Source: Candidatus Nomurabacteria bacterium (lineage in GTDB: Bacteria > Patescibacteriota > Minisyncoccia > Phycocordibacterales > UBA5272). From it: a stretch of 64,000 bases of DNA. Within the stretch, counting starts at the first letter, position 1. Each line of letters starts with the position of its first letter. Below the pieces are notes generated by a model. The model was not told the DNA's origin. It saw nothing but the letters and a program-made list of their open reading frames with translations, and did no database searches. A program made the position numbers and the translations under genes. The stretch lies in contig JBEIQD010000001.1 of assembly GCA_040376695.1 (NCBI GenBank), forward strand, positions 217,029 through 281,028, given 5' to 3'. Of this stretch, positions 16,437 to 42,751 are shown one piece after another.

Positions 16437-17327
16437 TTAGCCGCGCACTCTTTGTACTACTCGCACGGTCGACTTCTCACATTTCTCACCACAAAATCCT
16501 GGACCTTCTGCTGACATGCAGTTGTTGCAGATAAGAAACAGCATATTACATTCTGCGTTGGCGCAATTTTGGTACTGTTCATTAGGAGCATCGCATCGTT
16601 TACACTTTCCAACAATCTCTCTGTTTCCACCAAAATTCATCACAAGACGATCATCAAACGTAAAGAGTGTTCCTTTAAAATGCCCTTCTGGATATTTCTC
16701 CATGTATGAATGCATGCCGCCATCTAATTGATGCACATCTTTAAATCCTTTATGAAGGAGGTATGCTGACATCTTTTCACAACGAACACCACCGGTACAA
16801 ACAGTAACAATTTTCTTTCCCTCTTCCACTTTCAGGTCTTCAACTATTTTTGGAAGTTCACGTGAAGCGTCCATGCCGGGATCGATTGAATTTGCAAAAT
16901 GCCCAGACTCAAACTCATATGAGTTGCGCATATCCACCACTACGAAATCTTCCTTGTTTTCATAGAGCGCATGAAGTTCATCTGGAGACATGTACGGAGC
17001 AGTTTGCACACGTGGATCAATCTCTTTTCCAAAGCGTGTTCCTACTATCTCATTACGAACCTTAATCATGCATCGAGGAAATGAAGCTCCGTTCCCAACA
17101 CTACGTTTAATCTGCATATCAGAAAATCGAACGTCAGTAAGAAGCTCAAGAAGAAAGGCTTCAGTATTTTCTACTGTTCCTTCAAGAGTTGAATTAATAC
17201 CCTCTTCAGCGATAATTGTTCGTCCTTTAAGTTGATACTTATCACATAGCGCTCGATATAAACCCATAAGTTCTTTTGGGTTTTCAATAGTTACGTATTT
17301 ATAGAAAAGTAATACCTGATACGACAT
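16437..17327 (-). CDS. trhO: Rhodanese-domain tRNA uridine(34) hydroxylase TrhO/YceA family (UPF0176) with a C-terminal Cys-rich extension
   Basis: N-terminal LLFYKY signature and rhodanese active-site Cys (VCTGGVRC); start placed at MSYQVLLFYKY. The C-terminus carries a CxxC...C cluster. Confidence 0.8.
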   Translation of the reverse strand: MSYQVLLFYKYVTIENPKELMGLYRALCDKYQLKGRTIIAEEGINSTLEGTVENTEAFLLELLTDVRFSDMQIKRSVGNGASFPRCMIKVRNEIVGTRFGKEIDPRVQTAPYMSPDELHALYENKEDFVVVDMRNSYEFESGHFANSIDPGMDASRELPKIVEDLKVEEGKKIVTVCTGGVRCEKMSAYLLHKGFKDVHQLDGGMHSYMEKYPEGHFKGTLFTFDDRLVMNFGGNREIVGKCKRCDAPNEQYQNCANAECNMLFLICNNCMSAEGPGFCGEKCEKSTVRVVQRVRG

Positions 17328-17367
17328 AGTTGTATATATGTTCGATTCTAACAGAAAAGACTCTTCT

Positions 17368-17655
17368 TTAAAAATGCGCAAACATGTATATGAAGGCAAG
17401 AAAAAATAGTACAGAAACTATACGCATAGAAACAAATGAAATCACAACAAGAAACCACAAAGGAAAAGGTGTAATAACATATCCAATACTTATGATAATT
17501 AATTTCGGAACAAGAAAAATAAACACCCATTGATTGATAAGTGAGAAGCCTTTAAGCCAATCCATAAGTGCCGCAAGTCCAAAGAAGAAAAAGATACAGA
17601 AGACTTTTATACCTGAAGCAACAACACCAATTGATTCCTTAGGAAGAGAAAACAT
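17368..17655 (-). CDS. Possible small multi-TM membrane protein (weak)
   Basis: 95-aa ORF with 2-3 hydrophobic segments; no other support. Confidence 0.25.
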   Translation of the reverse strand: MFSLPKESIGVVASGIKVFCIFFFFGLAALMDWLKGFSLINQWVFIFLVPKLIIISIGYVITPFPLWFLVVISFVSMRIVSVLFFLAFIYMFAHF

Positions 17656-17698: not shown

Positions 17699-18943
17699 TT
17701 GATTGTGGTACACTCAAGTACATTATTTCTTCAATTTTCAGATTATCTTTCCGCTATGGCTCAATCGTTCTCAACAAAAAAGTACTTTTCAAAAATTTTT
17801 TCACATACACTGGTCTCAGAACTTATAGCAAATCATGGGGCGCAAGCCTTCTTTGAAATAAACGATCAGACTCCACGAAAACTTGCCGTACAATTGATGG
17901 AAGACTCAATTAAATCCCTCGAGACAGCGACACGTCTTGAAGTATTAAAAGATCTTTCATACATCTCATCGATTACAAGTCCGCATACTGCTTCGCTTGG
18001 GAAAAAACTTTTTAAAGAAGAGGTTGGTACAGACTTTGAGCCAGAAATTGAATGCACAAGTGACCACGATGTTGTTCTCTATCTTTTCCTCCGTCACGAA
18101 ACAATTGCAGACAAGCTCGCCTTTCTTTTTCCATTCTATGCCTCAAAGAGTTATATTTCTTATGAAGCAAAAAATATTGGAAAAGTTGAATCAGAAACAA
18201 AGTTAACTGAGTTGTCGCGCGAATTTACACGTCTAGCCAATAAAGATGACAATGCAACAGAGCAAGAAATGGAACACCTCTACCTAGAAAACATTCTCTA
18301 TATTGAATCAAAGTTCCAAGGGTCATACGATGTAGAGAGTAAACTAGATGCGACAACAGGAGAGATAACAAGAAAACATGTGACTCGAAAAATTGAGAAA
18401 GTTCGCATCGCATACCTACCTGAAGAGGAAATGGTTCTTATTGCTGGAAATGTTTCCAAACCACAGAAGATGATTTTTATGGACACCTTCCTTCGAATTG
18501 TTTGCGCAAGCGGATATGAAGAAAAAGTAGAACAATTTGATTTTACCCCCCTTAAAAACCTAACGCTAGATTTTACGCAATACAATAAAGGCACTCCTTT
18601 TATTAAAGCAAGTATAAGCTCCGTCACCATTTCATACGCTGAGGGTAAAAAGAAGCTTCGACTCATGCTTCCTGGAACGCGCGAACATAGCGGCATGCAA
18701 GCGCTCTCTGAAACGCTCGCTGAACTTGGACTTGAATCACGGTGGAGTTCTTTTGATATTATTAACATGTCGTTTAAGTTCATGTTCCAAAATAAAGAAA
18801 AACAAGATAAAGCTGTAAATGTTACGTGTTCAATTTCTGCAGTAAAAGCCTCGTTATGTCCACTGTTCGAATATGAACGCTACACGAAGCAAATTCTAAA
18901 GAATGCAGGGGTTTATAAAGGCTTTGTGCTGCTTGAAAAGTAG
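17699..18943 (+). CDS. Hypothetical protein (no recognisable domain)
   Basis: Long ORF of 414 aa, or about 395 aa from Met 17756; not overlapped by a better ORF. Confidence 0.55.
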   Translation: MIVVHSSTLFLQFSDYLSAMAQSFSTKKYFSKIFSHTLVSELIANHGAQAFFEINDQTPRKLAVQLMEDSIKSLETATRLEVLKDLSYISSITSPHTASLGKKLFKEEVGTDFEPEIECTSDHDVVLYLFLRHETIADKLAFLFPFYASKSYISYEAKNIGKVESETKLTELSREFTRLANKDDNATEQEMEHLYLENILYIESKFQGSYDVESKLDATTGEITRKHVTRKIEKVRIAYLPEEEMVLIAGNVSKPQKMIFMDTFLRIVCASGYEEKVEQFDFTPLKNLTLDFTQYNKGTPFIKASISSVTISYAEGKKKLRLMLPGTREHSGMQALSETLAELGLESRWSSFDIINMSFKFMFQNKEKQDKAVNVTCSISAVKASLCPLFEYERYTKQILKNAGVYKGFVLLEK

Positions 18944-19009: not shown

Positions 19010-19080
19010 AGCGGAGTAGAGTAGAGGTAACTCACGAGGCTCATAACCTCGGGACACCAGTTCGATTCTGGTCTCCGCAA
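19010..19080 (+). tRNA. tRNA-Met (anticodon CAT); possibly the initiator (1:72 positions appear unpaired)
   Basis: Cloverleaf: acceptor gcggag/ctccgc, T-arm accag-ttcgatt-ctggt, anticodon arm cgagg-ctcataa-cctcg. Confidence 0.8.
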
Positions 19081-19165
19081 CAAGTAAAACTACGTGACAT
19101 GGTTTAAGGTTTAAGCGCCGCCCACGTAGTTGTAGGCGGCGCTTAAACTATTGAAATAAGAATAT

Positions 19166-19239
19166 GTCAGTGTAGCTCAGTTGGTTAGAGCGTGGGACTC
19201 ATAAGCCCAAGGTCGGTGGATCGTTCCCACCCACTGACA
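19166..19239 (+). tRNA. tRNA with CAT anticodon (elongator Met or lysidine-modified Ile2)
   Basis: Acceptor gtcagtg/cactgac, D-arm gctc-agttggtta-gagc, anticodon loop ctcataa, T-arm ggtgg...ccacc. Confidence 0.7.
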
Positions 19240-19304
19240 CCCGTAGTAGACGGATTCTAGCTTTTTGCTAGAATGGATGAGACAAATAAATAGCGGTTAA
19301 ATAT

Positions 19305-19378
19305 GCGGTCGTAGCTCAGCTGGTTAGAGCACCGCCCTGTCACGGCGGGGGTCGTGGGTTCAAATCCCATCGACCGCG
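19305..19378 (+). tRNA. tRNA-Asp (GTC)
   Basis: Acceptor gcggtcg/cgaccgc, anticodon arm ccgcc-ctgtcac-ggcgg, T-arm gtggg-ttcaaat-cccat. Confidence 0.85.
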
Positions 19379-19386
19379 CAAAAAGA

Positions 19387-19463: not shown

Positions 19464-20354
19464 ATGTTTGAATCCTCCCCGCAAGAATCAGGTCCAGTTG
19501 CTGAACCATTACCACCACAAACAACTCTTGAATCTATTGAGCAACAATCTCACCTTGATGCAACAACTCTCATGAAAGAGAAAAATTGTTACTTTGTTCA
19601 CATGATGCAAGTAACTAAAGCTCTTGATGTTTCTGAAAATAACAAATCAGTAGATACGAACAAACTTACCAATGCCGATAAATTAGATATTTTATACGCA
19701 GCACAGCCAACTCTTTCCACTAGTACATTACGCCCACACACCCAAGACGGAACATTTCAAGGAGGGTTTGGTGTCATTTTCTCACAAGGTAAAATTGTTT
19801 CAGCTAGTCGAGGTGATAACGGAACAATAGCAATCTCACTTTCAGAAAGAAGAATTGGTGGAGGTAATCAAAACTCGAAAGAAGAAATAGACAAAGCTAT
19901 TGATCGACCACATGGCGGTTATGGGAAGTCATACAATGAAATAGTACTTAAAGAACCAGAAGTTGCAGGCGGATTTATGAAAATTGACGGAGAATCACTG
20001 CAAAAAAGAATAAGGTTTGAAGAGGAAGTTAGAGAGTACGGACACGGACAGAGAGATGTTGTTGAAAAAGTTGGAACTCTTGATCTTTCGAACGAAAAAA
20101 ATGGTTCAATATTTGATACTCCTTTTTCAGTGTTGCTCGAGATGGAAAAGCGCGGACCTGTTTTCTTTATGAACGAAAATAATGAAATGCTCCAAGTTAC
20201 TCATATTGATGAAAAAACAAGAAAGGTGCGTTTTTCTACACGTCCAATTACCCCAAGTGACATTGCAGAAGTCTATGGTGAACATAAAATTAACAAGTAC
20301 ACAAAACAAGAAATGTTAGACAGGGTCTCAGGTAATGGAATCACTCTTTCCTAA
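19464..20354 (+). CDS. Hypothetical protein (no recognisable domain)
   Basis: 296-aa ORF followed by a strong bidirectional terminator. Confidence 0.5.
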   Translation: MFESSPQESGPVAEPLPPQTTLESIEQQSHLDATTLMKEKNCYFVHMMQVTKALDVSENNKSVDTNKLTNADKLDILYAAQPTLSTSTLRPHTQDGTFQGGFGVIFSQGKIVSASRGDNGTIAISLSERRIGGGNQNSKEEIDKAIDRPHGGYGKSYNEIVLKEPEVAGGFMKIDGESLQKRIRFEEEVREYGHGQRDVVEKVGTLDLSNEKNGSIFDTPFSVLLEMEKRGPVFFMNENNEMLQVTHIDEKTRKVRFSTRPITPSDIAEVYGEHKINKYTKQEMLDRVSGNGITLS

Positions 20355-20359
20355 TGATT

Positions 20360-20391
20360 AAAAGACTTCAAGATAATCTTGAAGTCTTTTT
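20360..20391. terminator. Bidirectional intrinsic terminator between convergent genes
   Basis: Perfect hairpin aaaagacttcaagataatcttgaagtcttttt. Confidence 0.6.
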
Positions 20392-20394
20392 CTT

Positions 20395-21786
20395 TTACCG
20401 AATCACTTTCAGTTCTCTAAACACTGATTCGTAGAGGTTAAATGCTCGCTTAGCTTCACGTTCAGTTAACTGGAAATCTGATCCTTCATGAGCAATTCTA
20501 TTTCGTATCCCATGAGCGTCCCACGCTAATTGTACTGTTTTGAAGTTTGATACCTTGAGCATATCCGCCACAGTCTCCCCTGCATATCCTTTGTCTCGCA
20601 ACACATGAGCGAGCATATTATCTGCTTCAAGGATTCCTATTCTCCATAACGCTTCACTAGTGCTACTCATATACCCTTGTACGATTGCGAATCGAGGATG
20701 ATCTTCAAAATCATTAACGGTAGGTGGGGCAGCTGGTGCTTCTTCGTGAATTGGAAGACCAGGAATTCCTGCCACAAGCACATCATCAAGGTGAGTATCC
20801 TTAATAACATGAGCTTCTTCATGTCCATGATGATCTCCATGACTAAAGTGATGCTCGTAATGATGTAAGCCTTCAAGGAAGGTTAGGAACCATCTAAACA
20901 CCACATACACAAATACCAGGACCATCGCCACAGCTAAAATAGAAAGGAGGTCTGTGAAAAGTGAAAGCACTGGATTCTGTACCGAAAAATGAAGACCGCT
21001 TGTCGCACCATTAATATCAAAAGATGGAATCTGCGTAGTATTAGTTGCATCAAGTGGATACGTATCCATGTTATCCAGAATGCCGTCACCGTCAGTGTCT
21101 GTTTTGTAAATATCAGACCCTATAAAACCTTCTACTTTATCGCTCACTCCATCACCATCTGTATCAAGAGTACGAGCGGAAATGGTTCCATCAAGGGGTG
21201 CTTCATCACGACCGTCTAACACAAGATCTCCATCGCTATCACTATTAAGAGGGTCAGTTCCTTGATTAAGCTCTTGCCCATCAAACACACCATCCCTGTC
21301 TGAATCTCCGCTATTTTTATCCATACCGTGAGCAAGTTCATAGCTATTAGGTACTCCGTCCTTATCAGAATCTTTTGGACCTATTCCAAACAAATCGCGC
21401 ACATGATCAGTAAACGTATAATCAGCCTGGAAACGTTCCTTTAACTGTGCATCAGTAAGATTACTCGCATCATACGGACTACTGTCAGTAACGTCTGGTT
21501 GTCCATCTTTATCTGAATCAGGAAGGTTAATACCAAAAGATTCAAGCATTCTTTGCCACAAAGATACATGAATATCCGCCTGCGGAACTACAGCGTCTTT
21601 CTGTGCAAGATAGTCCGTAAACCATCCACGATCACGCAACCCATCAAATTCTCGATAGGTGTGTTCAACTAAATATTCATCTGGGTTTTTCCTTAAGAGG
21701 ACGAAGAGCCACACGTACTTAATCCAAAGAAGTACATCATATATACGATTGAAAAGGTAGTCGATAGAAATCGATTGCATGGACAA
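20395..21786 (-). CDS. Membrane protein with thrombospondin-type-3-like Ca-binding repeats, a His-rich segment and a C-terminal HEPN-like (Rx4H, DUF4145-like) domain
   Basis: Six or more DxDxDG-type repeats (DSDKDGQPD, DSDKDGVPN, DSDRDGVFD, DTDGDGVSD, DTDGDGILD). An N-terminal hydrophobic anchor and an internal TM (LLSILAVAMVLVFVYVVF). HHYEHHFSHGDHHGHEEAH stretch. C-terminal LAWDAHGIRNRIAHEG motif. Confidence 0.6.
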   Translation of the reverse strand: MSMQSISIDYLFNRIYDVLLWIKYVWLFVLLRKNPDEYLVEHTYREFDGLRDRGWFTDYLAQKDAVVPQADIHVSLWQRMLESFGINLPDSDKDGQPDVTDSSPYDASNLTDAQLKERFQADYTFTDHVRDLFGIGPKDSDKDGVPNSYELAHGMDKNSGDSDRDGVFDGQELNQGTDPLNSDSDGDLVLDGRDEAPLDGTISARTLDTDGDGVSDKVEGFIGSDIYKTDTDGDGILDNMDTYPLDATNTTQIPSFDINGATSGLHFSVQNPVLSLFTDLLSILAVAMVLVFVYVVFRWFLTFLEGLHHYEHHFSHGDHHGHEEAHVIKDTHLDDVLVAGIPGLPIHEEAPAAPPTVNDFEDHPRFAIVQGYMSSTSEALWRIGILEADNMLAHVLRDKGYAGETVADMLKVSNFKTVQLAWDAHGIRNRIAHEGSDFQLTEREAKRAFNLYESVFRELKVIR

Positions 21787-21865: not shown

Positions 21866-23302
21866 TTATGCTTGAGAAATCTTTTCAAAGTCCCTTCCAA
21901 TACTGAAAAGTGTAGACTCTCCAAAATGTGGAGCAATGAGCTGAAGAGAAAGAGGTAACTCAACACCGTCTTTTGCTTTCGTAGTTCCAGAAGGAAGCGA
22001 GATGGCGGGCACTCCAACAATATTAATTGGAACAGTAAATATATCCGCTAAATACATAGCAAGCGGATCGTGAGATTTTTCCCCTATCTTGAAAGCAGGT
22101 ATTGGGGAGGTTGGCATAGCGATTGCATCAACATCTTTAAACACAGCGGCAAACTCTTCGCGTAACATTGCGCGCACGATATTTGCTTTATTATAGTACG
22201 CATCATAATATCCCGATGAAAGCACGTACGTTCCGAGCAAAATTCTACGACGCACCTCGTCTCCTAATCCATCTGTTCGTGTTTTAAAGTACGCACCAAG
22301 CATAGAGTTTGAAGCGTTCTCATCTTTAAGTGAGAGCCCGTAGCGAATACCGTCATATCGAGACATGTTTGATGAAATTTCCGCAAACACCACAACATAG
22401 TACACAGAAAGAGCTTTTTCCAAATGCTCAAGTTGTATATCTACAATCTCGTACCCATTACTTTTCAATTTTTCTAGAGATGCGTTGAAATTTTCAAGAA
22501 CTTCAGGATCAATTCCTTCACGTTCGACGAATGATCGAGGTACACCAATTTTTTTCCTCTGGTTTGCTGCAACAGTAGGAATATCTTTCACTGATGTCGC
22601 ATCCAAGTCGTCCGCTCCTTTAATAATATTAAATACCGCTTCAACGTCATCGACACATGTAGCAAATGGTCCAATCTGATCAAGCGATGAGCCCATAGCC
22701 ATTAATCCATATCGAGAGACCGCTCCGTATGTTGGCTTAAGTCCTACAATTCCACAAAATGATGCTGGCTGACGGATTGAACCTCCAGTATCAGATCCAA
22801 GCGACACAGAAACTCCACCATATGCAACAACCGCAGCTGATCCACCTGATGATCCACCTGCAACGCGTGTGATGTCAGCCGGATTTTTTGTTACTCCAAA
22901 TGCAGAATTTTCAGTTGACCCTCCCATGGCAAACTCATCCATGTTAGCTCTTCCAAGTAAAATAGCTCCCGCTTCTTTTAATTTCTTTACAACAGTAGCA
23001 TCATACACCGCAGCGTAATCGGCAAGAATCTTTGAAGCAGCGGTAGCACGCTCCCCTTTAACAACAATATTGTCTTTAAGAACAATCGGAACACCTGTGA
23101 GCGCTGTCGCTGTGCCGTCCTTCAACATGTTCTCAGCGCGTGCAATTTGGCTTTCGATAAGATCATTTGAGTACATACCCAAAATAGCGTGAATGCTTTC
23201 GTCTTTTTCACTTATTGTTTTGTGCGCATCCTCAACAAGACTGGTAACAGTAATAGTTCCATTCTTCAACTCTTCTTGAATTTGCTGTAATGTTTTTTGC
23301 AT
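21866..23302 (-). CDS. gatA: Glutamyl-tRNA(Gln)/aspartyl-tRNA(Asn) amidotransferase subunit A
   Basis: Amidase-signature GGSSGGSAAVVA and the catalytic Ser-cisSer-Lys context. Confidence 0.95.
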   Translation of the reverse strand: MQKTLQQIQEELKNGTITVTSLVEDAHKTISEKDESIHAILGMYSNDLIESQIARAENMLKDGTATALTGVPIVLKDNIVVKGERATAASKILADYAAVYDATVVKKLKEAGAILLGRANMDEFAMGGSTENSAFGVTKNPADITRVAGGSSGGSAAVVAYGGVSVSLGSDTGGSIRQPASFCGIVGLKPTYGAVSRYGLMAMGSSLDQIGPFATCVDDVEAVFNIIKGADDLDATSVKDIPTVAANQRKKIGVPRSFVEREGIDPEVLENFNASLEKLKSNGYEIVDIQLEHLEKALSVYYVVVFAEISSNMSRYDGIRYGLSLKDENASNSMLGAYFKTRTDGLGDEVRRRILLGTYVLSSGYYDAYYNKANIVRAMLREEFAAVFKDVDAIAMPTSPIPAFKIGEKSHDPLAMYLADIFTVPINIVGVPAISLPSGTTKAKDGVELPLSLQLIAPHFGESTLFSIGRDFEKISQA

Positions 23303-23311: not shown

Positions 23312-23596
23312 CTACTTAAGCACTTGTTCAACCTTTACATACCCATCTTCACTCTCTGGCGACTCTTGCATAATAGCTTCTGTATTTGAACCAGGGAGAT
23401 GGGTAATAACATCCTCACGCAAAATATTATAATGTGTCTCTTTTGCTGGTGAAGTTGTTCCTCCAACTTCATTTATCTCGGATACATAGCCCAAAATAGC
23501 CTGCATATCATGGAGCATTTTCTCTTTTTCTTCTTCCTTGATTGAAATCCTCGCGAGCTGCGAAAGATTGTCTAATTCCTCTAAAGTAAATGACAT
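23312..23596 (-). CDS. gatC: Amidotransferase subunit C
   Basis: 94-aa protein immediately upstream of gatA with a GatC-like N-terminus (LEELDNLSQLARISIKEEEKEK). Confidence 0.8.
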   Translation of the reverse strand: MSFTLEELDNLSQLARISIKEEEKEKMLHDMQAILGYVSEINEVGGTTSPAKETHYNILREDVITHLPGSNTEAIMQESPESEDGYVKVEQVLK

Positions 23597-23603: not shown

Positions 23604-25610
<2,007 letters not shown>

Positions 25611-25664: not shown

Positions 25665-26294
25665 CTACTGTATCGCACTCTCAGAGGTACTAACAATCGC
25701 TCGTTCAATTGGATACGCGTACACAGAACCACATGAAGCAAACCCACGAGAAATAATCTGTCTGTAGGTAGGTGTTTTATTAACAAGTACAGTAGCGCAT
25801 CGATACTCCCCTCCACCTAAATCCATACGCATATTAAAGGTAGAAGTTTGCCCAGTGTCAGTATTCCCCGCAGAATCAATACGTGAAAAAGGGGTAATAG
25901 CATAGTTACTAACCGAACTATCGAAAATACTCGATGCAGCGCACTTTATGTCATTTAAGGAAAGAGAACTTAAACCACCCGCTACACGCTGTACGTTTAT
26001 TTTATCCAGCACCATTTGACTTGTTACTAGATTATTATATTGAAAGATACCAAGACCTGTTTCTTGATCGTAATACTGATCATCTATTGCCGTAGCACAC
26101 ATGAGTCCATTATCAGCAGCGTAGTAAGCAATTTGACTCAAGCGAGAGAGTCTAGAAAAATATAGCTCCTTACTAAGAATAATAGAGATGCTCGTAGCAA
26201 TAGTTAGAATAATAACGCACACAATAAGAGTCAGTGGGAGGACAAACCCCTTAGCACGTGTATCTATTATTTTCTTAAGAGTAAATAGTTTCAT
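25665..26294 (-). CDS. PilX-like pilus-assembly/minor pilin protein
   Basis: Hydrophobic N-terminal segment (KGFVLPLTLIVCVIILTIA) without the classic cleavage motif; last gene of the pilin sub-cluster. Confidence 0.45.
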   Translation of the reverse strand: MKLFTLKKIIDTRAKGFVLPLTLIVCVIILTIATSISIILSKELYFSRLSRLSQIAYYAADNGLMCATAIDDQYYDQETGLGIFQYNNLVTSQMVLDKINVQRVAGGLSSLSLNDIKCAASSIFDSSVSNYAITPFSRIDSAGNTDTGQTSTFNMRMDLGGGEYRCATVLVNKTPTYRQIISRGFASCGSVYAYPIERAIVSTSESAIQ

Positions 26295-26299
26295 GTTCG

Positions 26300-26950
26300 T
26301 TATGCTCGTGCGTGGAGAAAATCTACAATCTTAACCTGATGTAGATATCCGTTCTGACGCTTAAAGGTTATTGTAACCGTAACACGAAGATCGTCATTAT
26401 AATTTTGGTCTGGACCGGTAAATGTTGGTATTGAAGTAATAGACACAGCTCGACTAAAATTAGTTAATGTGTACCCTGGCCCGCTCCCGTGGGCTCCTGT
26501 ACAAACATAAATACTAGTTGCGTCTTCTAGAGAGAGGGTATTGCAACCTGCTTGATTACTTACATACTTCGTTGGATCAAAATCTTCATTAGCTGTCATA
26601 TCAATGAAATCATATGCACATCCCGTAGGGTTATCTACCTCGTAACATGACGCACCTTGAGCATTAGAAGCTAATCGTGCACGAAACACTCGCCAAGCCG
26701 CTTGAGCTGAAGTTTCTGCATTAATAGGTGTACATGCAGCTGTGGTGGATTGAATGCAGCGTATATACACAGAGTCTTGCTGGTGACGTAAAAGTTCTAT
26801 TGCCTCCTGTGCGAGATATGTTGCAATAAGAGTGTCCTTTGTAAGTCGTGCATACGTTGAAGCGTTCGATGCAACAGTAAGCGGACCAAGAATTACCATC
26901 GTAATGATCATTGTAGACACAAGTGTTTCAACAAGTGTAAAGCCGCGCAT
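26300..26950 (-). CDS. Type IV minor pilin (prepilin-type N-terminal cleavage/methylation domain)
   Basis: MRGFTLVETLVSTMIITMVIL: G/FTLVE class III signal. Confidence 0.75.
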   Translation of the reverse strand: MRGFTLVETLVSTMIITMVILGPLTVASNASTYARLTKDTLIATYLAQEAIELLRHQQDSVYIRCIQSTTAACTPINAETSAQAAWRVFRARLASNAQGASCYEVDNPTGCAYDFIDMTANEDFDPTKYVSNQAGCNTLSLEDATSIYVCTGAHGSGPGYTLTNFSRAVSITSIPTFTGPDQNYNDDLRVTVTITFKRQNGYLHQVKIVDFLHARA

Positions 26951-26995
26951 AGATCGTGCTTGTTTTTTGAAAAGGAAATTGAAAAATATCATAGG

Positions 26996-27634
26996 TTAAT
27001 TGTCTAGAGCACGAGATGATCCACTTGTTTGAACACTAAAGGTTACAGCGGGGATCGTCTTCTTTCTTGGAATTGTCACCCCTGATATAACCATAGTAAT
27101 AAGTGGCTGATTATTGTCAGAAGCGCCAGCATAGTCAGCTGTTCCGGTTGTACTATGTAATCCATCACCATAAAAAGAAAGTGTTGTTATATTCACATCA
27201 CTTGAGGTGATCTGAAATGTTCTCACTGTCCCACCATATGGATACTCATTTTTATATAAAATCCCATTTGAAAGATAATATGCCACGCGGTCGAGGTTAA
27301 GGTTTGTTGTACCGTTCAAAGCAACGGTTGGCCTAAAGATAAGCACAGTACCCCCACTTGGGTAGTCACATCCTTTTCTAAGAGTTGTCATAGGAGTTGG
27401 GATGGCAGTGTCACAATAAAAACGTGAACCATACCGTATGTCACGTATGATCACTTCTGTTGCCAAGTTTACTCCATCAAGAATAGATTGTGTTTGTTCT
27501 AGTCGAGTGTTTACGACCTGTGCTGAAAAAAGTGCCCCTGTGGCAATGGTCATAACACTAATAAAAATTGCCATCGTAACAAGTAGTTCGATAAGAGTAA
27601 ACCCGCGAAGTGAAGATTTGTTTCTGTGTATCAT
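26996..27634 (-). CDS. Type IV minor pilin (GspH/PilV-like)
   Basis: LRGFTLIELLVTMAIFISVM prepilin signal. Confidence 0.75.
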   Translation of the reverse strand: MIHRNKSSLRGFTLIELLVTMAIFISVMTIATGALFSAQVVNTRLEQTQSILDGVNLATEVIIRDIRYGSRFYCDTAIPTPMTTLRKGCDYPSGGTVLIFRPTVALNGTTNLNLDRVAYYLSNGILYKNEYPYGGTVRTFQITSSDVNITTLSFYGDGLHSTTGTADYAGASDNNQPLITMVISGVTIPRKKTIPAVTFSVQTSGSSRALDN

Positions 27635-28302
27635 GGTGTAAGGTTGTCGCATCTACCGATATCATTTCTAATCATACCTGAACTAAATATTTGAACATTT
27701 CTAATATGCCCTAATAGAGGAGCTCGTGGAGAAAAGAGTTCAATACACGCCGCTCCATAACTGGTCGTAGTTGCATTGTTAATATAAATTGAAGGTACTG
27801 GGTTTGGTCGAGTGAAAGACACCGTAAGAGATTCAACGGCTGGAACATTTGATTCATTGCAAGTAAAAGGAAAACCTGTTCCAACACAGAGCCTATTAAC
27901 AAAATACCTATCAGGAAGTTTTGTTGTTGTCTTTGTTTCATTGAAAGGAACACCGTCCTCAAAAAGACTATTTCCTATTGCAATACCATATGGCTTCGGA
28001 ATACTAGCATCTACTGTGTCACCAAAAAGAACAAGTTGAGTCGATGAGGCTAAAGATATATACACACCATACCCACCGAGAGAACTATTGATTGAATCAA
28101 TTGCGCTCCCTCGAACTTGAGCTTCACGAATGAGGAGTGAAGTTGTGTGGGAAACATTAGCAAGTGTTAATCGTACCGCTGTTTCTGGGTATTTACTCAA
28201 AAGAACCGCCGTGAGAGTAACAATAACTGCCATACTGATACTTAATTCAACAAGAGTAAAGCCGCGCAAAGGAAAAAATACTTTGGAGGATTTCATATTC
28301 AT
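27631..28302 (-). CDS. Type IV minor pilin
   Basis: PLRGFTLVELSISMAVIVTL prepilin signal. Confidence 0.75.
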   Translation of the reverse strand: MNMKSSKVFFPLRGFTLVELSISMAVIVTLTAVLLSKYPETAVRLTLANVSHTTSLLIREAQVRGSAIDSINSSLGGYGVYISLASSTQLVLFGDTVDASIPKPYGIAIGNSLFEDGVPFNETKTTTKLPDRYFVNRLCVGTGFPFTCNESNVPAVESLTVSFTRPNPVPSIYINNATTTSYGAACIELFSPRAPLLGHIRNVQIFSSGMIRNDIGRCDNLTP

Positions 28303-28311
28303 ATAGTACCA

Positions 28312-29085
28312 CTAAGCAAAGAGTGAAGCGATGGAAAAAATGCCTATATCTGTGAACAAAACAATAAGAAACGCAGCCACAATAAATGGCACAAAAGGAA
28401 TTGCTGTATTCGTATTATGTTTCTTCCTTCTTTGGAGGTAAACGATAATACCGACCACAGCCCCTAACCATACAGAAATGAGAAGCACCGCGAGACCTTG
28501 TTCAATTCCAAAAAAAGCGCCGACGGCTAAGTATAAAAGAACATCTCCAAAACCAAGAGCTCGGCCCTTTGTAACTAACCAGATAATAAGAAATGGGAGT
28601 GCTACTACAAGTGGACCTAATAAGACTTCCACCCCTCCATAATGAACATATCTAATACCCAACATTACAATAGAAAGAAATGAGAAGAGCCCGAGAAAAA
28701 CAACAGGTACATATGAATGCTTATAATCATATAACGCTATCACTCCCAAAGAAATAAGGATGAGGGTGTAGTAGAAAAGCCACCACATAGCAACAACAGG
28801 TGCTGAACCAGCCAACATAAAATGATAGACCATCATAAACACCACCCCAAAGCCGATTTCAATGATAAGTGTCTCTATTCCGTACGGGACTTTACAGTAC
28901 TTACACTTTCCTTTAAGGAAGAGATAGGAAAGTACTGGTACCAAATCTGAAATGCGAAGTGCCTCTCCGCAGGAGAGGCACTTGCTACGTGACTGTATGA
29001 TTGGGGCAACGTTAAGACGAGTAGCTACAACTTGAACAAAACTCCCTATCGCAGCACCGTATAAGAATGATAGAAAATAGAACAC
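28312..29085 (-). CDS. pilD: Prepilin peptidase (A24 family)
   Basis: Polytopic membrane protein with CxxC...CxxC (CLSCGE...CKYCK) between TM1 and TM2 and conserved Asp residues. Confidence 0.85.
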   Translation of the reverse strand: MFYFLSFLYGAAIGSFVQVVATRLNVAPIIQSRSKCLSCGEALRISDLVPVLSYLFLKGKCKYCKVPYGIETLIIEIGFGVVFMMVYHFMLAGSAPVVAMWWLFYYTLILISLGVIALYDYKHSYVPVVFLGLFSFLSIVMLGIRYVHYGGVEVLLGPLVVALPFLIIWLVTKGRALGFGDVLLYLAVGAFFGIEQGLAVLLISVWLGAVVGIIVYLQRRKKHNTNTAIPFVPFIVAAFLIVLFTDIGIFSIASLFA

Positions 29086-29094
29086 TACAAGAAA

Positions 29095-29742
29095 CTAGTT
29101 AGTAAGGTCGTAGATACAGTTCGTGAGTGCACCAGTACATGTTGTTAAACCAGTGTCTGCAGGACCATTACCGAAGTCAGCAGAAGCTGATCCAGCTGGG
29201 TTTCCAGCATCGCCTGAACCAAAGTTACTTCGTACAACGGTACAAGCACTTGATGATGTACATACAGGAACCGCTGCACCTGACGTCGCATCTCCCATAC
29301 ATGGACGAGGACTACTTCCTGAAGCGGTTTGAACACCTCCACAGTCAGCGTCATCGTTTAATCCCTGGTTTCCAGCCTCAAGCTTTACACCAATATGGTA
29401 TCCCATGTAATTAGCTGTTCCTGAATCGAGGAAAGCTGCGTACATGTATTTATCACGCCCAATAGTAGAAGTTGCTGCGTTTGAAGGCATGTTTGGAATA
29501 TAACGAGGAACTAGGTCTTCGATGGCGCCAGGATATGTTCCTCCGTGGTCGTCAGCGTAAATACCAATTGCTGTCACAATTGAACGAAGGTCTGCAATCT
29601 TTTTTGCATCTCGTCCCTTCTTACGAGCTTCAGTAATTGGAGCTGCGATAACAGTTGATAGGAGACCAATGATTGCGATAACAACGAGAAGTTCAATCAA
29701 CGTGAATCCTCTTAGACCCTTTTTTGTAAGTGTTTGTAGCAT
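29095..29742 (-). CDS. pilA: Type IVa major pilin candidate
   Basis: KKGLRGFTLIELLVVIAIIGLLSTVI class III signal. The C-terminal half is G/S/A/T-rich with six Cys, and the gene is GC-richer than its neighbours. Confidence 0.8.
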   Translation of the reverse strand: MLQTLTKKGLRGFTLIELLVVIAIIGLLSTVIAAPITEARKKGRDAKKIADLRSIVTAIGIYADDHGGTYPGAIEDLVPRYIPNMPSNAATSTIGRDKYMYAAFLDSGTANYMGYHIGVKLEAGNQGLNDDADCGGVQTASGSSPRPCMGDATSGAAVPVCTSSSACTVVRSNFGSGDAGNPAGSASADFGNGPADTGLTTCTGALTNCIYDLTN

Positions 29743-29840
29743 AATTTTTTTCTATCTTTGTAGATATCTTAAGTATAGTACCCTTCGTCTAAAGCGCAAG
29801 GAATACCGGTGCAAAAGTGAAGAATAGCTGTGGATAAAAG

Positions 29841-31046
29841 CTATGAAATAGAAGCAGAAAGTGAGTACATCGGAAGAAGCACAGATGACACAAGAACTCC
29901 AACACCCAAACCAAGACCTACAATCATAGCTGGTTCAATCAATCCAATAACATTATCGATAGCTGTGTCGAGCTCTCGTTTATAGAACGTAGCAAGGTTC
30001 TTGAGGATATATCCAAGCTCTCCTGTTTCTTCACCGATACGAACCATTTGCACAAGAATATTCGGAACGAGCGGCTCTTCGTATAAAGCCTTTGAAAAGG
30101 CAACTCCAGATTGTACTTTTGCTGATACTCGTTTAAGTAAATCTTTATATACCACGTTATCAACAACAGCTGAGGTGATATCGATAGATCTCACGATAGG
30201 AACTCCACTAGAAAGCATAGTATTCATATTGTCTGCAAGTCGTGTAAGGAAAATTCTTTGATAGAGATTTTTAAACACGGGAGTTTTTGTTTTAATCTCA
30301 TCCATCTTGCGTGTCCCTTCTTCTGTTTGTATCCATCGATAAAAAAGCCAACCTCCAATAATCATTACAGGAAACACAATAATCCAGTACTTTACGAATA
30401 TCTCAGAAGTTCCAAGTACAATTTTTGTAATCATTGGTAGTTCAGCTCCCTGATCCGCAAACATCGCTGCCATTTTTGGAATAACGAACACGAACATACC
30501 AACCATAATCACAATAAATGTCCCCACCACGAACATTGGATATGTAAGTGCCTTCTTTACCTTCTGACGCAATTCATAATCACGATCGAGATAATCAGCT
30601 AAGTACAAGAATGATTCATTAAGCTTTCCACTCTCTTCTCCAGCTTTCACCATGTTCACATAAAAAGGAGAGAATAGTTCTGGACGCTTAGAGAGCGCAT
30701 CAGAAAGAGAAACACCAGATTCAATATCATCCGCCACACCAGTAAGCTGCCGCTGAAGTTCTTTGTTATCATTCTCAGCAGCAAGTAGACGAAAAGCTTT
30801 TAAAGCTGACACTCCGGCTTCAAAGAGTGTTGCAATCTGTCGAGAGAAAATAACAACATCTTTTGGTTTAATCTTTGCCTTGAAGAAAGAGAAGTTGAGG
30901 TTTACATCTTTACTTTTGTCTTTAATACTTACAACGCTCAATCCTCGCTTTTGAAGAAGCACTATTGCTGCGTCCTGTGAAGAAGCTTCTATTTCAGCTT
31001 CTGTTTTTGTTCCCTCTTGATTAATTGCTGTGTAGTGAAAAATCAT
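29841..31046 (-). CDS. pilC: Type IV pilus platform protein PilC (GspF family)
   Basis: 401 aa; two GspF repeats and three TM blocks. Confidence 0.85.
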   Translation of the reverse strand: MIFHYTAINQEGTKTEAEIEASSQDAAIVLLQKRGLSVVSIKDKSKDVNLNFSFFKAKIKPKDVVIFSRQIATLFEAGVSALKAFRLLAAENDNKELQRQLTGVADDIESGVSLSDALSKRPELFSPFYVNMVKAGEESGKLNESFLYLADYLDRDYELRQKVKKALTYPMFVVGTFIVIMVGMFVFVIPKMAAMFADQGAELPMITKIVLGTSEIFVKYWIIVFPVMIIGGWLFYRWIQTEEGTRKMDEIKTKTPVFKNLYQRIFLTRLADNMNTMLSSGVPIVRSIDITSAVVDNVVYKDLLKRVSAKVQSGVAFSKALYEEPLVPNILVQMVRIGEETGELGYILKNLATFYKRELDTAIDNVIGLIEPAMIVGLGLGVGVLVSSVLLPMYSLSASIS

Positions 31047-31048
31047 AG

Positions 31049-32137
31049 TTATAGTAGACGTTCAAATATATTTGTTCGTCGAGCAAAAGACATGGCATCA
31101 TCTTTTGTTACATCTCCGCGACGAACAAGCTCAGCAAGATTACGATCAAGGTCTATCATGCCGTCTTGTGACCCAGTCTCGATAAGTACGTCAATTTCAT
31201 GCGTTCTTCGTTCTCGAATAAGATTTGATATTGCTGGTGTATTAAGAAGAAGTTCAAATGCAGGAATAAGTCCACCAGATACGCGTGGAACAAGGCGTTG
31301 TGAAAGAATACCAATAAGCGATGAAGCAAGCTGCAAACGAATCTGATCTTGCTGATCAGCTGGGAACGTATCAATAATACGATCAACAGTTTGTGCAGCT
31401 GAGTTTGCGTGAAGTGTTGAAAGTACGAGGTGTCCTGTTTCAGCAGCAGTAACTGCAGCCGAAATAGTTTCTTTATCTCGCATCTCACCAATCATAATTA
31501 CATCAGCATCCTGACGGAACACGTGTGTAAGGGCTGTGTGGAAATCTTTTGTATCAACACCAACTTCACGTTGCTCAATAAGAGACTTATCCTGATCAAA
31601 ACGAAATTCAATGGGGTCTTCAATGGTTACAATGTGACGCTTTGCTTCACTGTTAATGAGTCCTATCATAGAAGCAAGCGTCGTTGATTTACCTTGCCCA
31701 ACAGGTCCCACCACAAGAAAGAATCCTTGGCGTTCACGAGCAATCTGAATAATCTGTTCTGGTAAATTAAGTTCAGAAATACTTTTTACTTTAGTAACAA
31801 GACGAAGGGCGATAGAAATAACTCCACGCTGAAACGAGGCGTTCCCACGAAGTCGATATTCTTTTGCATATTCATATGAAAAATCGATTTCTTGATTTAC
31901 AACAAACGAAGTAAGTGCTTTTTCACCAACCATTACACGCAAAAATCCAAGCGTATCTTCTGCGGTAAGTTCTCGTTTACGAGTAAGTGGAATCAAATCA
32001 CGATTAACACGAAGTGTAGGAAAAGAACCCACTGTCATATGCAGATCAGACCCCCCTTCTTTTACCAGCGACATAATAAGGTCTGCGAGCTCCGTTTCGT
32101 AGTTCATAGTTGAAGTATAGCAGTGTATGTAAAGCAA
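31049..32137 (-). CDS. pilT: Twitching-motility retraction ATPase PilT
   Basis: 362 aa; Walker A GPVGQGKST, Asp box, Walker B and His box of PilT-class secretion ATPases. Confidence 0.85.
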   Translation of the reverse strand: MLYIHCYTSTMNYETELADLIMSLVKEGGSDLHMTVGSFPTLRVNRDLIPLTRKRELTAEDTLGFLRVMVGEKALTSFVVNQEIDFSYEYAKEYRLRGNASFQRGVISIALRLVTKVKSISELNLPEQIIQIARERQGFFLVVGPVGQGKSTTLASMIGLINSEAKRHIVTIEDPIEFRFDQDKSLIEQREVGVDTKDFHTALTHVFRQDADVIMIGEMRDKETISAAVTAAETGHLVLSTLHANSAAQTVDRIIDTFPADQQDQIRLQLASSLIGILSQRLVPRVSGGLIPAFELLLNTPAISNLIRERRTHEIDVLIETGSQDGMIDLDRNLAELVRRGDVTKDDAMSFARRTNIFERLL

Positions 32138-32173
32138 ACAATTGTATAACTCACAGAAAGTAGATTTCTATGA

Positions 32174-33919
32174 TTATAGTTCGTTAATTTCGGTAAATGG
32201 AATAAGTCCTTTGATTGACTTTATAATCGCATCTTCTTTCATCGTCATCATTCCATGAGAGCGAGCGAGCTTCCATATCTCTTCTTCGCCCTTACTATGA
32301 AGAACAGCCTCTTGAACATCGTCAGTGAATGTTAGCACCTCAAACACAGGAACACGTCCTTTCATTCCTGTTGGATGTGTTGCATCTGCCTTTGCTTGGT
32401 GAAGTGGTTTATCTAGTGGTAATAATTTTCTAAATTCTTCTGGCATATCCTTAAACTGCTCTTGAATCATTGTCCTCATGCTGTCATTCTCTGGAATCTC
32501 TTCTGCGCACCCTTCTGCAATTTGACGCGATAGACGCTGACCAATCGTTGCGATAATAGTTGGAGCAATAAGATATGGTTCAATACCCATATCCATAAGA
32601 CGCGTAACAACACCAATAGCTGTGTTGGTGTGAATTGTAGAGAACACCAAGTGACCAGTAAGAGCAGCCTGAATAGCAAGACCCGCAGTTTCCGCATCTC
32701 GAATTTCTCCCACCATGATTACGTCAGGATCTTGACGCAAAATAGAACGAAGACCTGAAGCAAACGTATAGCCAATTTCTGGGAACACCTGAGATTGGTT
32801 CATAGAAGGAACGTTATATTCAATTGGATCCTCAAGAGACACCACATTTCTGTGCTCACGATCCAGTTCGTTCAACATCGCGTACAGTGTTGTTGTTTTT
32901 CCAGATCCTGTTGGACCAGAAATCAAAATAATTCCATATGGACGAGCAAGCGCTTCACGAATTGCTGTCATCTGGCGCTCATCAAATCCAAGCGTATCCA
33001 CAGGGCGCACCCCCTTGTAACTATCAAGAATACGAATCACCACCTTTTCTCCATAGTACCCTGGGAATGTCGACACACGGTAGTCAATACTATGATCTCC
33101 TAATTTCGTACTAAAACGTCCGTCTTGAGGCTTTCGTTTTTCGTCAAGCTTAATTGAACAGAGAATCTTTACACGAGCAATAAGCATTGGATGCATCTTT
33201 ACCGGAAGAGTGGTGATAGTTTCAAGTCGCCCATCCAATCTTACACGAGCTCGCACAGCTGTGCCAATATGTTCAATGTGAATGTCAGATGCACCGTTAT
33301 CAATTGCATAGCGCAAAATAATACTAAACACTTCAGGAATAGTAAGTTTTGCAAGATCGTTATCTAAAATTTGTGATACGTCTGAAAGATCAATATCCTC
33401 TCCAAGGTTCTCAGCCCCCTTGTCAGGTTCATCTTTGGAAACATATGAAAGTTTCTCGTCACTAACTTTATCAGTAAGGGAAGCCTTTAAATCAGAGGGA
33501 CTGGCACTAAGTCCAAAATGTTTCTTGTAAGCATCGTATGAAATCAAATATACCTTATACGCTTGATGATCTGTACCGAAAAGGAATTGAAGACTATCCA
33601 ATACATTTCCATGTTCTGGATCCACAACTCCGACTAAAAGCACCCCTTCAACCATTTCTAGCGGTACTGCGAGGAATTGCTTTGACTGAACAACATTAAT
33701 ATAACGAGTGAGTTCTTTATCTTCCGCGATTTCCTTCCCGTAAATAGGAAGTCCATACAGCACGGATCGCACCTGCATAATGTCTTCCCCTGTGATTTGT
33801 TTTGCTTTTAGTAAATCATCAACGAGAACATCGTCACGCACCGAAATATCAGACTCAATGTCCTTTGCTTCAAGTTCTGTTAACTTATTTTGACTAACGA
33901 AGAGGTCGAGTAGAAGCAT
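32174..33919 (-). CDS. pilB: Type IV pilus assembly ATPase PilB (GspE family)
   Basis: 581 aa; N-terminal GSPII_E_N-like domain and Walker A GPTGSGKTTTL. Confidence 0.9.
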   Translation of the reverse strand: MLLLDLFVSQNKLTELEAKDIESDISVRDDVLVDDLLKAKQITGEDIMQVRSVLYGLPIYGKEIAEDKELTRYINVVQSKQFLAVPLEMVEGVLLVGVVDPEHGNVLDSLQFLFGTDHQAYKVYLISYDAYKKHFGLSASPSDLKASLTDKVSDEKLSYVSKDEPDKGAENLGEDIDLSDVSQILDNDLAKLTIPEVFSIILRYAIDNGASDIHIEHIGTAVRARVRLDGRLETITTLPVKMHPMLIARVKILCSIKLDEKRKPQDGRFSTKLGDHSIDYRVSTFPGYYGEKVVIRILDSYKGVRPVDTLGFDERQMTAIREALARPYGIILISGPTGSGKTTTLYAMLNELDREHRNVVSLEDPIEYNVPSMNQSQVFPEIGYTFASGLRSILRQDPDVIMVGEIRDAETAGLAIQAALTGHLVFSTIHTNTAIGVVTRLMDMGIEPYLIAPTIIATIGQRLSRQIAEGCAEEIPENDSMRTMIQEQFKDMPEEFRKLLPLDKPLHQAKADATHPTGMKGRVPVFEVLTFTDDVQEAVLHSKGEEEIWKLARSHGMMTMKEDAIIKSIKGLIPFTEINEL

Positions 33920-34226
33920 ATGGTACGAACGGGTCTACGCGACCACGTGTATCGTTAGTTGAGATGGTTTCTGAAAAGTCACGGAGCTGTCGCACAAGCG
34001 CAGAGTCCATGAAGTTCGCATCTGTGAATGAAATACGATCCTGATTTACGACTTTAAGGAAAAGTACAAAATTCTGTCCGAGTAATTGCTCGTTGATTTT
34101 AGTTTCAGAAACAGACGCTGAACCTTCGCTGAAACTTGTATACAGATAATATGCTCCAAATAGGAAAAGGAGGAGAATTGCTGCTTCGATGATAACTGTT
34201 TTCTTTTGTACGAAAAATGATTGCAT
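33894..34226 (-). CDS. Small membrane-anchored protein inside the pilus operon (possibly a PilP-like accessory)
   Basis: 110 aa with an N-terminal TM; sits between pilO and pilB and overlaps the pilB start by 26 nt. Confidence 0.4.
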   Translation of the reverse strand: MQSFFVQKKTVIIEAAILLLFLFGAYYLYTSFSEGSASVSETKINEQLLGQNFVLFLKVVNQDRISFTDANFMDSALVRQLRDFSETISTNDTRGRVDPFVPYASTRPLR

Positions 34227-34235
34227 ATACGTGAA

Positions 34236-34787
34236 TTATTTTATGAAGTAGGTCTCAAGCTTTACCTGGTATGAAGTAGGATCACTCTCACGCTCAGGGG
34301 CTGCAAAGTTCACTGTTTGTATTGAGAAAAGTCGCAAACTCTTTTCAAATGTATCCATAAGAACCTTAAATTGTGGGTATGTTGTCTTAACAGTAAATGA
34401 AATACCTGCCGATCCACGACCGTTCGTTGTTGATGGGCCGTCTGAGTATGCAAGTTCATTAAATGGAATTCCTGCTTCTACAGAAATATTATACACCTCA
34501 CTAAGTAGTCTCACTTTATCAATACTGTCAGGCACCATCACTTTCATTTTAGCTTTCTGTTCATCGGTAACACGAGAATACTGTGAGCGAAGTGTTTCTG
34601 CTTGCGTGAAAAGATTATCCGCTTGATTGAGGGTCTCATCATACTGACTCTTTAGTTCTCGAAGTGACTGGACACTTTCTGTTGGCTGCCACACACCACC
34701 CACACCCTTATAGAGTGGACCGATCAATAGATAATACACTGCGAATGTTCCAACGATGAGCAATAAGTTAAGGAGATTTTTTGACAT
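34236..34787 (-). CDS. PilO-like pilus assembly protein
   Basis: N-terminal TM plus coiled coil; positioned after PilN. Confidence 0.55.
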   Translation of the reverse strand: MSKNLLNLLLIVGTFAVYYLLIGPLYKGVGGVWQPTESVQSLRELKSQYDETLNQADNLFTQAETLRSQYSRVTDEQKAKMKVMVPDSIDKVRLLSEVYNISVEAGIPFNELAYSDGPSTTNGRGSAGISFTVKTTYPQFKVLMDTFEKSLRLFSIQTVNFAAPERESDPTSYQVKLETYFIK

Positions 34788-34794
34788 AGTGGTA

Positions 34795-35589
34795 TTACCT
34801 TCTTGGTGAGGTAGTTGTTCCAGTAGAAGTTCCTGTTACTGGCGTTGTTGTACCTGTAGTAGGAAGTATCGGCATAGTTGATGAACTTGTACCCATGATT
34901 GGAGACGTTGAAGCAACTCGCGCGGCTGCACCATCTGAAAGATTAATACCTTCAGGAAGAAGCCCTGCGATCAAGATAGGCATCTTAAGAGTAAACCCGA
35001 TATTTCCTGTTTCGTTAGGCTGCAACCCTTCAACGACAATATCCTGTATGTATGTTGTGTATGGCTTACGCTTAAGTGTGTCCACTTGTTGAGCAATGCT
35101 CTTATAGTTAGGAGCAACACCGCCAAGCTGAAGAGCGTACCCTTTTGTCTGCGGGTTATATCGCAATTCAAAACGTTCATAAGTCACCTGATTTTCAATA
35201 CTGTCTTCAACAATACGGAATGCAACGTTTGCTGATGGGTGCTCTTTAACCAACTGATTAATTATTTTAATCCGATTAGAGAGTTTACGCATGTCTTCAA
35301 GTGGAAGCGTTGCGAGACGTGATTCATAGTCCGCAAGTAATGCTTTCTTGGCATCAATTTGAGATGAGAGGTAATACTGATACCCAAAAAGTCCTACAGC
35401 AATTAATACCGCAGCACCAAAGACTGCCATCAAAACAAGCTGAACTAGTGATTTACCATGCTCCCCTTCTCGTGCCATAAGACTCGATACTGCTGTTCCA
35501 CCAAAAGAAGCCGCAGGAGTAGGTACAGGTAACGGAGCGTCTCCGTTTGGTGTGGTTTGTGATATCTCTGGTTTAAATGAAAACGGCAT
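34795..35589 (-). CDS. PilN-like pilus assembly protein with a Thr/Ser/Gly-rich C-terminal tail
   Basis: Single TM after a short cytoplasmic N-terminus; positioned after PilM. Confidence 0.5.
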   Translation of the reverse strand: MPFSFKPEISQTTPNGDAPLPVPTPAASFGGTAVSSLMAREGEHGKSLVQLVLMAVFGAAVLIAVGLFGYQYYLSSQIDAKKALLADYESRLATLPLEDMRKLSNRIKIINQLVKEHPSANVAFRIVEDSIENQVTYERFELRYNPQTKGYALQLGGVAPNYKSIAQQVDTLKRKPYTTYIQDIVVEGLQPNETGNIGFTLKMPILIAGLLPEGINLSDGAAARVASTSPIMGTSSSTMPILPTTGTTTPVTGTSTGTTTSPRR

Positions 35590-35609
35590 ACGTGAGGTGG
35601 TGGTGAATC

Positions 35610-42736: not shown

Positions 42737-42751
42737 ATATTGTTTTCTGTG

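Follow-up and report, generated by a model that had tools for sequence, protein, structure and literature searches.

A predicted membrane-tethered HEPN endoribonuclease encoded behind gatC-gatA in a Candidatus Nomurabacteria bacterium, and its family in Patescibacteria

HEPN domains attached to membranes have been described before. In the survey of Anantharaman et al. 2013 (PMC3710099), three groups in all combined a HEPN domain with transmembrane (TM) segments; they included DUF4145 with a WP-signature TM domain and Abi2/Swt1-family HEPN domains placed after a single TM helix. The same survey listed DUF4145 fused to "TM and SH3 (Firmicutes)", drew an analogy with Ire1 and C6orf70, and proposed that membrane-associated HEPN proteins with external sensors carry out stimulus-dependent RNA degradation at the membrane. 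Here we analyse a protein of this architecture class, in which thrombospondin-type-3 (TSP3) repeats, a TM helix and a HEPN domain follow each other, encoded in a 64,000-nt stretch of DNA (hereafter the window) of Candidatus Nomurabacteria bacterium (assembly GCA_040376695.1, contig JBEIQD010000001.1, positions 217,029 to 281,028, forward strand). With a little more confidence than doubt, the protein is read as a predicted membrane-tethered cytoplasmic HEPN endoribonuclease, a two-pass protein of a Paceibacteria-type bacterium of the candidate phyla radiation (CPR), with an accessory, lineage-specific ectodomain. With the membrane HEPN proteins of the survey it shares a HEPN domain that is predicted to be cytoplasmic and has its Rx4-6H motif intact, attachment to TM helices and possible external sensors, and SH3b-TM-HEPN variants of its family resemble the "TM and SH3" architecture. 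It differs from them in features that appear to be new: its HEPN family is covered by no model, the domain scoring below all Pfam HEPN thresholds, and has so far been seen in Patescibacteria only; its gene has the character of a core gene with strict linkage to gatC-gatA, behind which it lies; and the present variant carries TSP3 repeats and a His-rich motif. The post-gatC-gatA position, the occurrence in Patescibacteria and the TSP3 and His-rich features were not found in the literature searched on membrane HEPN proteins, and no prior description was found in the literature searched for HEPN together with CPR/Patescibacteria or for GatCAB together with CPR. The original prediction, made from the sequence of this locus, had taken the whole architecture to be undescribed. 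The TM-HEPN class and the idea of a sensor RNase are not new, and that claim holds for the TSP3 combination and for the present family, both of which appear to be undescribed.

The open reading frame (ORF) delimited mechanically (20395..21786, reverse strand) comprised 463 aa from a TTG at 21786 to the stop codon at 20395-20397. Since the orthologues begin with M-[YQN]-S-[LIF]-S-[IL]-D-Y, the true start is probably the ATG at 21780, which gives a protein of 461 aa, and residues are numbered from this ATG. More than 120 full-length orthologue clusters, sharing 63-100% identity, indicate that the ORF is not a chance feature. Its C-terminal part was compared with the published definition of HEPN (PMC3710099): four helices packed as an up-down bundle, helices 2 and 3 being separated by an insert, an Rx4-6H motif closing helix 3, a polar residue (N/D/H) after the arginine, and a conserved acidic residue in helix 2, near the motif. 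Active HEPN RNases are metal-independent, leave 2',3'-cyclic phosphate ends and form face-to-face dimers. Residues 357-461 were modelled with AlphaFold2 (AF2) from an alignment of 41 sequences, and the model reached a predicted local distance difference test score (pLDDT) of 95 and a predicted template modelling score of 0.87. In the numbering of this model, helices were obtained at 6-15, 20-40, 48-54, 60-79 and 84-100, the third of them belonging to an insert formed by residues 41-59, so that the order of the HEPN helices is canonical and not permuted. The model places E385-A-D387 in helix 2 and R426-N427-x3-H431 in the C-terminal half of helix 3. In an alignment of the window protein with 148 cluster representatives (149 sequences in all), H423, R426, N427 and H431 were 100% conserved, W379, D387, W420 and G433 were 99% conserved, and E385 and A386 reached 97% and 94%. 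The motif is contained in LAWDAHGIRNRIAHEG (residues 418-433). The original prediction had rightly named it as the Rx4-6H motif of HEPN RNases and expected a HEPN fold, which the model bears out; it had also let the domain end in this motif, and here a final helix of ~30 residues comes after it. Because the motif and the insert are placed as in the published definition, the acidic pair lies in helix 2 and the model is confident, the domain is read as HEPN, and alignment and model together support its assignment to a HEPN family outside all current Pfam models.

The best Pfam match of the window protein was HEPN_Swt1 (PF18731), with E = 0.03 and 15 bits against a cutoff of 27.5. When 41 diverse members were compared with Pfam, the sub-threshold matches were mostly to HEPN families: Swt1 in 16 members, RiboL-PSP in 12, pEK499_p136 and Cthe2314 in 5 each, and DUF4145 (PF13643) in one, with an E-value of 0.038; the best values were 0.004 for HEPN_Swt1 and 3.5e-4 for pEK499_p136. 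Membership of the DUF4145 or Swt1 family, to which the domain had initially been likened, was rejected, since these scores are below the Pfam gathering thresholds. In a Foldseek search against the PDB the minimal HEPN protein 2hsb ranked first, the match not being significant. The top-ranked structural neighbours included the HEPN toxins 5yep, 8xdj and 7ae2, and a full-length model, built independently, returned the same top matches. Sequence identity to the HEPN-MNT toxins (SO_3166, 5yep; 7ae2; 8xdj) and to minimal HEPN proteins of the AF0298/TTHA0636 type (2hsb, 1wwp) was 7-10%.

The remainder of the protein was analysed by profile searches, orthologue alignment and modelling (Table 1). Six DxDxD motifs lie at residues 88, 137, 159, 181, 206 and 228; five of them are DxDxDG, and all six are invariant in 24 orthologues. 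The TSP3_bac profile (PF18884) matched in two stretches and passed its gathering threshold (26.6 bits against 25), pLDDT was about 84-87 over residues 140-240, and the segment 34-270 has a net charge of -35. Repeats of the TSP3 type with DxDxDG motifs bind Ca2+ in thrombospondin. Among bacterial TSP3 proteins, CglD and MtsD of Myxococcus also carry such repeats in an extracytoplasmic, strongly acidic region; the likeness is confined to the repeat, as the NCBIfam scores of 39 and 20 bits compare with equivalog cutoffs of 400 and 800, and neither protein has the TM-HEPN module. After the repeats comes the strong TM helix TM2. Invariant residues mark its two ends, N269-P270, D277 and S280 the outer one and R296/W297 the inner one. 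It is followed by a His-rich region with 10 His in 29 residues, whose conserved core HYEHHF prolongs the TM2 helix. A HY[EY]H motif in this juxtamembrane position was present in 111 of 127 TSP3-type proteins and in 4 of 141 others, a co-occurrence that suggests a co-inherited ectodomain-TM-His module. The repeats, the helix and the His-rich stretch had all been pointed out in the original prediction and are present as listed; the hydrophobic helix at residues 11-31 (TM1), together with the family-wide linkage to gatC-gatA described below, had escaped it. TM1 corresponds in position to the clear TM1 of the short and SH3b forms of the family, has a column identity of 0.84, and was modelled by AF2, with low confidence, as a helix at 6-28. 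Across the family, the K+R count is 3.1 in the 15 residues that follow the last TM helix and 1.1 ahead of it, the comparison by protein giving 100 against 16. By the positive-inside rule, this enrichment supports an N-in/C-in topology in which the variable region is outside and the HEPN domain cytoplasmic, the arrangement already assumed at the outset for repeats and HEPN domain.

A word-index search with the domain alone returned just C-terminal fragments of orthologues already found, and it was an exhaustive profile search that exposed the wider family: 2,547 clusters (at 50% identity) with E <= 1e-3, of which 1,397 had E <= 1e-10, the domain being always C-terminal. In nearly all members a TM helix ends about 30-45 residues before the HEPN domain, so that TM helix, 30-45 residue linker and HEPN form the constant module; some members are one-pass rather than two-pass. 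Most members are two-TM proteins of ~200 aa, essentially without an ectodomain. Of the 148 top representatives, 113 have no more than 260 aa, 7 are of TSP3 type, 5 have SH3b-like repeats in the region that separates TM1 from TM2, and 23 are long forms of other kinds. A typical short form reads "MAEEKK..-TM1-short loop-TM2-linker-HEPN", with the loop alone outside. Because most members are so short, the TSP3 region is regarded as accessory to the core function, the ectodomain was rejected as the core of that function, and the idea of signal gating, which the original prediction had raised, was unsupported or overstated.

The same survey of forms bears on the question of whether the protein could be a surface adhesin or envelope-tethering protein, in which the TSP3 or SH3b ectodomain is functional and the cytoplasmic domain is a passive anchor. 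CPR bacteria live as episymbionts attached to host cells, TSP3 repeats occur in the surface/adhesion proteins CglD and MtsD (the partial NCBIfam matches mentioned above), and SH3b replaces TSP3 in other lineages. However, the ectodomain is dispensable, as the 113 short forms demonstrate, and the HEPN domain is the most conserved region (column identity 0.85) and has invariant catalytic-type residues. An adhesin is hence considered extremely unlikely.

At least 586 loci in GTDB species representatives carry the family domain. Titles that name a taxon refer to Paceibacterota, Nomurabacteria, Parcubacteria, Zambryskiibacteria, Minisyncoccia and, many times, to "uncultured Candidatus Saccharibacteria"; the sole title of another kind among these loci belongs to one 1.5-kb contig labelled Gammaproteobacteria. 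The family has so far been seen only in Patescibacteria. Where public names are given they read "hypothetical protein", except that one orthologue is called "Bacterial TSP3 repeat" and one fragment of 73 aa "NAD+--asparagine ADP-ribosyltransferase".

The genomic context was compared at 84 loci, including TSP3 and short forms, with three genes considered on each side. The gene immediately upstream of the HEPN gene was gatA in 79 of the 84 loci, the second was gatC in 69, and the third was ligA in 44. Six further diverse representatives (SH3b, short and other long forms) were examined, and in all six the HEPN gene was also directly 3' of gatA. The gap between gatA and the HEPN gene had a median of 39 bp and was often below 10 bp or negative, several genes overlapping gatA. 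In the window no promoter-like site was found in the 80-bp gap, and the terminator-like hairpin behind the HEPN gene may be the site at which a gatCA-HEPN transcription unit ends. The HEPN gene is probably co-transcribed with gatCA, and this operon link makes tRNA a candidate substrate of the predicted RNase.

A more specific possibility is a tRNA-directed role coupled to GatCA, in which gatC-gatA-HEPN is one unit and the HEPN domain cleaves, or binds and presents, tRNA-Gln/tRNA-Asn or their mischarged precursors, or localises the amidotransferase at the membrane. The position after gatA is near-invariant across very different ectodomains, and the gaps are very short or overlapping. In other bacteria gatB usually comes after gatA; here the HEPN gene occupies this place, no gatB-like conserved cluster occurred within three genes on either side in the 84 loci, and none of the scanned ORFs of the window was gatB. 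Several characterised HEPN RNases, PrrC and RloC among them, are tRNA nucleases (PMC3710099). Nevertheless, the evidence is one of synteny, ligA is just as conserved in the cluster with no evident functional link to GatCA, and no physical or sequence feature ties the HEPN domain to GatCA. A role of this kind is considered unlikely.

The rest of the window is made up of housekeeping genes (dnaG, secA, valS, typA, lepA, murJ and a type IV pilus cluster), and no second copy of the HEPN domain was detected within its 64 kb. Four diverse members had no match in PADLOC-DB 2.0, and a scan of viral contigs revealed none that carries the domain. On the basis of these negative searches, the housekeeping surroundings and the fixed position after gatA, the HEPN gene behaves as a vertically inherited core gene, not as a defence or toxin gene. 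Among the prokaryotic HEPN proteins that have been characterised, toxins and defence RNases predominate (PMC3710099), and the structural neighbours named above include HEPN toxins. An effector of toxicity or abortive infection therefore has to be weighed, one that the membrane would keep silent until phage attack or stress frees or activates it, in the manner of HEPN-MNT or Abi systems. HEPN-MNT toxins are soluble and paired with an MNT antitoxin gene, whereas the present protein is membrane-anchored, and no MNT-like or other antitoxin-like cluster was present among the neighbours at the 84 loci, where the downstream genes are variable. Its fixed housekeeping position and orthologues of 63-100% identity are also unlike those of patchy, fast-evolving defence genes. 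A toxin-antitoxin or defence module was rejected for lack of a partner gene and because of the fixed housekeeping locus, and a membrane-held toxin is regarded as very unlikely.

In the favoured reading, that of a membrane-tethered endoribonuclease, the N terminus would lie in the cytoplasm and the weak TM1 (~11-31) would lead outside, where a strongly acidic stretch holds the six TSP3-type repeats; the strong TM2 (271-301) would return the chain to the cytoplasm. The cytoplasmic part would consist of the His-rich juxtamembrane helix, a flexible linker and, at the C terminus, the HEPN domain, whose RNase-type active site would be complete (E385/D387; R426-N427-x3-H431). This domain is predicted to be a metal-independent endoribonuclease that acts on RNA at the inner membrane face, and its active form would be the face-to-face dimer known from other HEPN RNases. 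The ectodomain, which is variable (none, SH3b repeats or TSP3 repeats), would be a lineage-specific addition to this core; it may anchor the protein on the cell envelope or on the surface of the host, or influence dimerisation in the style of Ire1. In the TSP3 subgroup, a further, metal-dependent control may come from the His-rich helix. The similarity to Ire1, to RNase L's KEN domain and to C6orf70 would consist of an external or lumenal sensor, one passage through the membrane and, in the cytosol, a HEPN-type RNase that dimerisation activates (PMC3710099, and partly general background). Unlike Ire1, the present protein has no kinase domain, its HEPN domain is not permuted, and most of its family members have no ectodomain; the relation is hence one of analogy and not of membership.

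Several observations weigh against the endoribonuclease reading. No Pfam HEPN model of clan CL0291 reached its gathering score, neither in the window protein nor in the 41 diverse members, and searches of the PDB gave no sequence or profile match other than chance matches (FABP, GDH, PPAT). TM1 of the TSP3 form is weakly hydrophobic (Kyte-Doolittle hydropathy, KD, 1.24) and poorly modelled by AF2. Conservation of gene order in the small CPR genomes need not imply a functional link, and ligA is also conserved in the cluster with no evident link to GatCA. Finally, the TM-anchored HEPN-like domain of Csx28, an accessory protein of type VI-B CRISPR systems, shows that such a domain can work without nuclease activity (10.1101/2021.11.02.466367). 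Like the present protein, Csx28 combines an N-terminal TM helix with a cytoplasmic HEPN-like four-helix bundle; it forms an octameric pore by face-to-back contacts and has no canonical nuclease interface (10.1101/2021.11.02.466367). By this precedent, the HEPN domain could be non-catalytic: within a membrane complex or pore it would mediate oligomerisation or bind a ligand or RNA, and the protein would change membrane permeability or scaffold envelope proteins. The one or two TM helices of the family and the conserved charged residues D15, K21 and D277 in the TM regions of the TSP3 form are consistent with such a module. Csx28, however, is associated with type VI-B Cas13b and has a divergent motif, whereas the present motif is canonical and no CRISPR genes were found in the neighbourhoods of the 84 loci. 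A non-catalytic role is judged improbable.

The endoribonuclease reading can also be extended to a core regulatory enzyme, so far seen only in Patescibacteria, that would couple envelope state or host contact to translation. Ectodomains would then sense Ca2+, peptidoglycan or the host surface and bring about HEPN dimerisation, which would lead to cleavage of tRNA or membrane-proximal mRNA, and control of the Gln/Asn-tRNA supply would account for the operon link to GatCA. This extension is considered distinctly unlikely.

Table 1. Features of the HEPN locus (positions in the window)
Feature	Position	Strand	Basis
Coding sequence of the TSP3-TM-HEPN protein, 461 aa from ATG	20395..21780	-	orthologues align from ATG
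N-terminal hydrophobic helix, putative TM1 or signal anchor, residues 11-31, with conserved D15 and K21	21688..21750	-	KD 1.24
Membrane-proximal segment of the ectodomain, conserved, residues 34-85; DGLRDRGWF and SLW are invariant	21526..21681	-	orthologue alignment
TSP3-type, putatively Ca-binding repeat region, residues 86-245	21046..21525	-	Pfam/NCBIfam profiles, motif count, alignment
Strong transmembrane helix TM2, residues 271-301	20878..20970	-	KD up to 2.65; AF2; alignment
His-rich juxtamembrane stretch HHYEHHFSHGDHHGHEEAH, residues 306-324	20809..20865	-	sequence, alignment, AF2
Pro-rich low-confidence linker, residues 325-359	20704..20808	-	variable in alignment; pLDDT <50 over 309-354
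C-terminal segment between linker and stop codon, holding the Rx4H and E385-A386-D387 sites	20398..20703	-	
E385-A386-D387, acidic site of HEPN helix 2	20620..20628	-	conservation and AF2 helix assignment
Rx4H motif R426-N427-R-I-A-H431, end of HEPN helix 3	20488..20505	-	conservation and AF2 model
14-bp hairpin between convergent genes, terminator-like, right after the stop of the HEPN gene	20360..20390		
gatA, directly upstream, 80-bp gap	21866..23302	-	TIGR00132, 547 bits against cutoff 481
gatC	23312..23596	-	ORF list, neighbour comparison
ligA, conserved upstream neighbour of gatC	23604..25601	-	ORF list, neighbour comparison

Other features were noted in the surroundings of the locus. 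The gene convergent with the HEPN gene is an ORF of 296 aa without a Pfam match (19464-20354, forward strand), preceded by a tRNA-Met, tRNA-Met, tRNA-Asp cluster at 19010-19379. Another ORF without a Pfam match (17699-18943, forward strand) encodes 414 aa, and homologues of it are encoded no more than a few genes away from the HEPN gene at 18 of the long-form loci. TrhO, the oxygen-dependent tRNA U34 hydroxylase of the rhodanese family, is encoded at 16437-17399 on the reverse strand, near the HEPN gene, as it also is at another locus of the survey (L003). In one relative (locus L086, positions 3060-3509) a PemK-family toxin gene was inserted between gatC and gatA, interrupting a gatC-gatA-HEPN unit that is conserved elsewhere. 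The type IV pilus cluster, with N_methyl pseudopilins, PilC (T2SSF), PilT, PilB and PilM, lies directly upstream of ligA (25665-36692, reverse strand). Farther away (42649-42838, reverse strand) two adjacent tRNA-Ser genes of 88 nt, 78% identical to each other, have the anticodons GCT and ACT; a tRNA-Ser with A34, as in the second, is unusual in bacteria.

Prokaryotic HEPN RNases are known almost only as patchily distributed toxins or defence effectors. Across a major class of CPR/Patescibacteria, by contrast, the gene for a HEPN domain whose active site is intact is conserved, syntenic and apparently single-copy, in the manner of a core gene; the domain is predicted to be membrane-anchored, and the gene is linked to gatC-gatA. 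About 2,500 clusters of "hypothetical" proteins could receive an annotation, and their HEPN domain could become a new Pfam-type family. If the domain is an active RNase, it would represent an unrecognised step of RNA processing or regulation in little-known organisms, and it could link envelope or host sensing to translation. Should that link from envelope to translation prove true, the protein would be a bacterial counterpart of Ire1 in episymbionts and, among HEPN RNases, the first with a housekeeping role and a tie to indirect tRNA aminoacylation.

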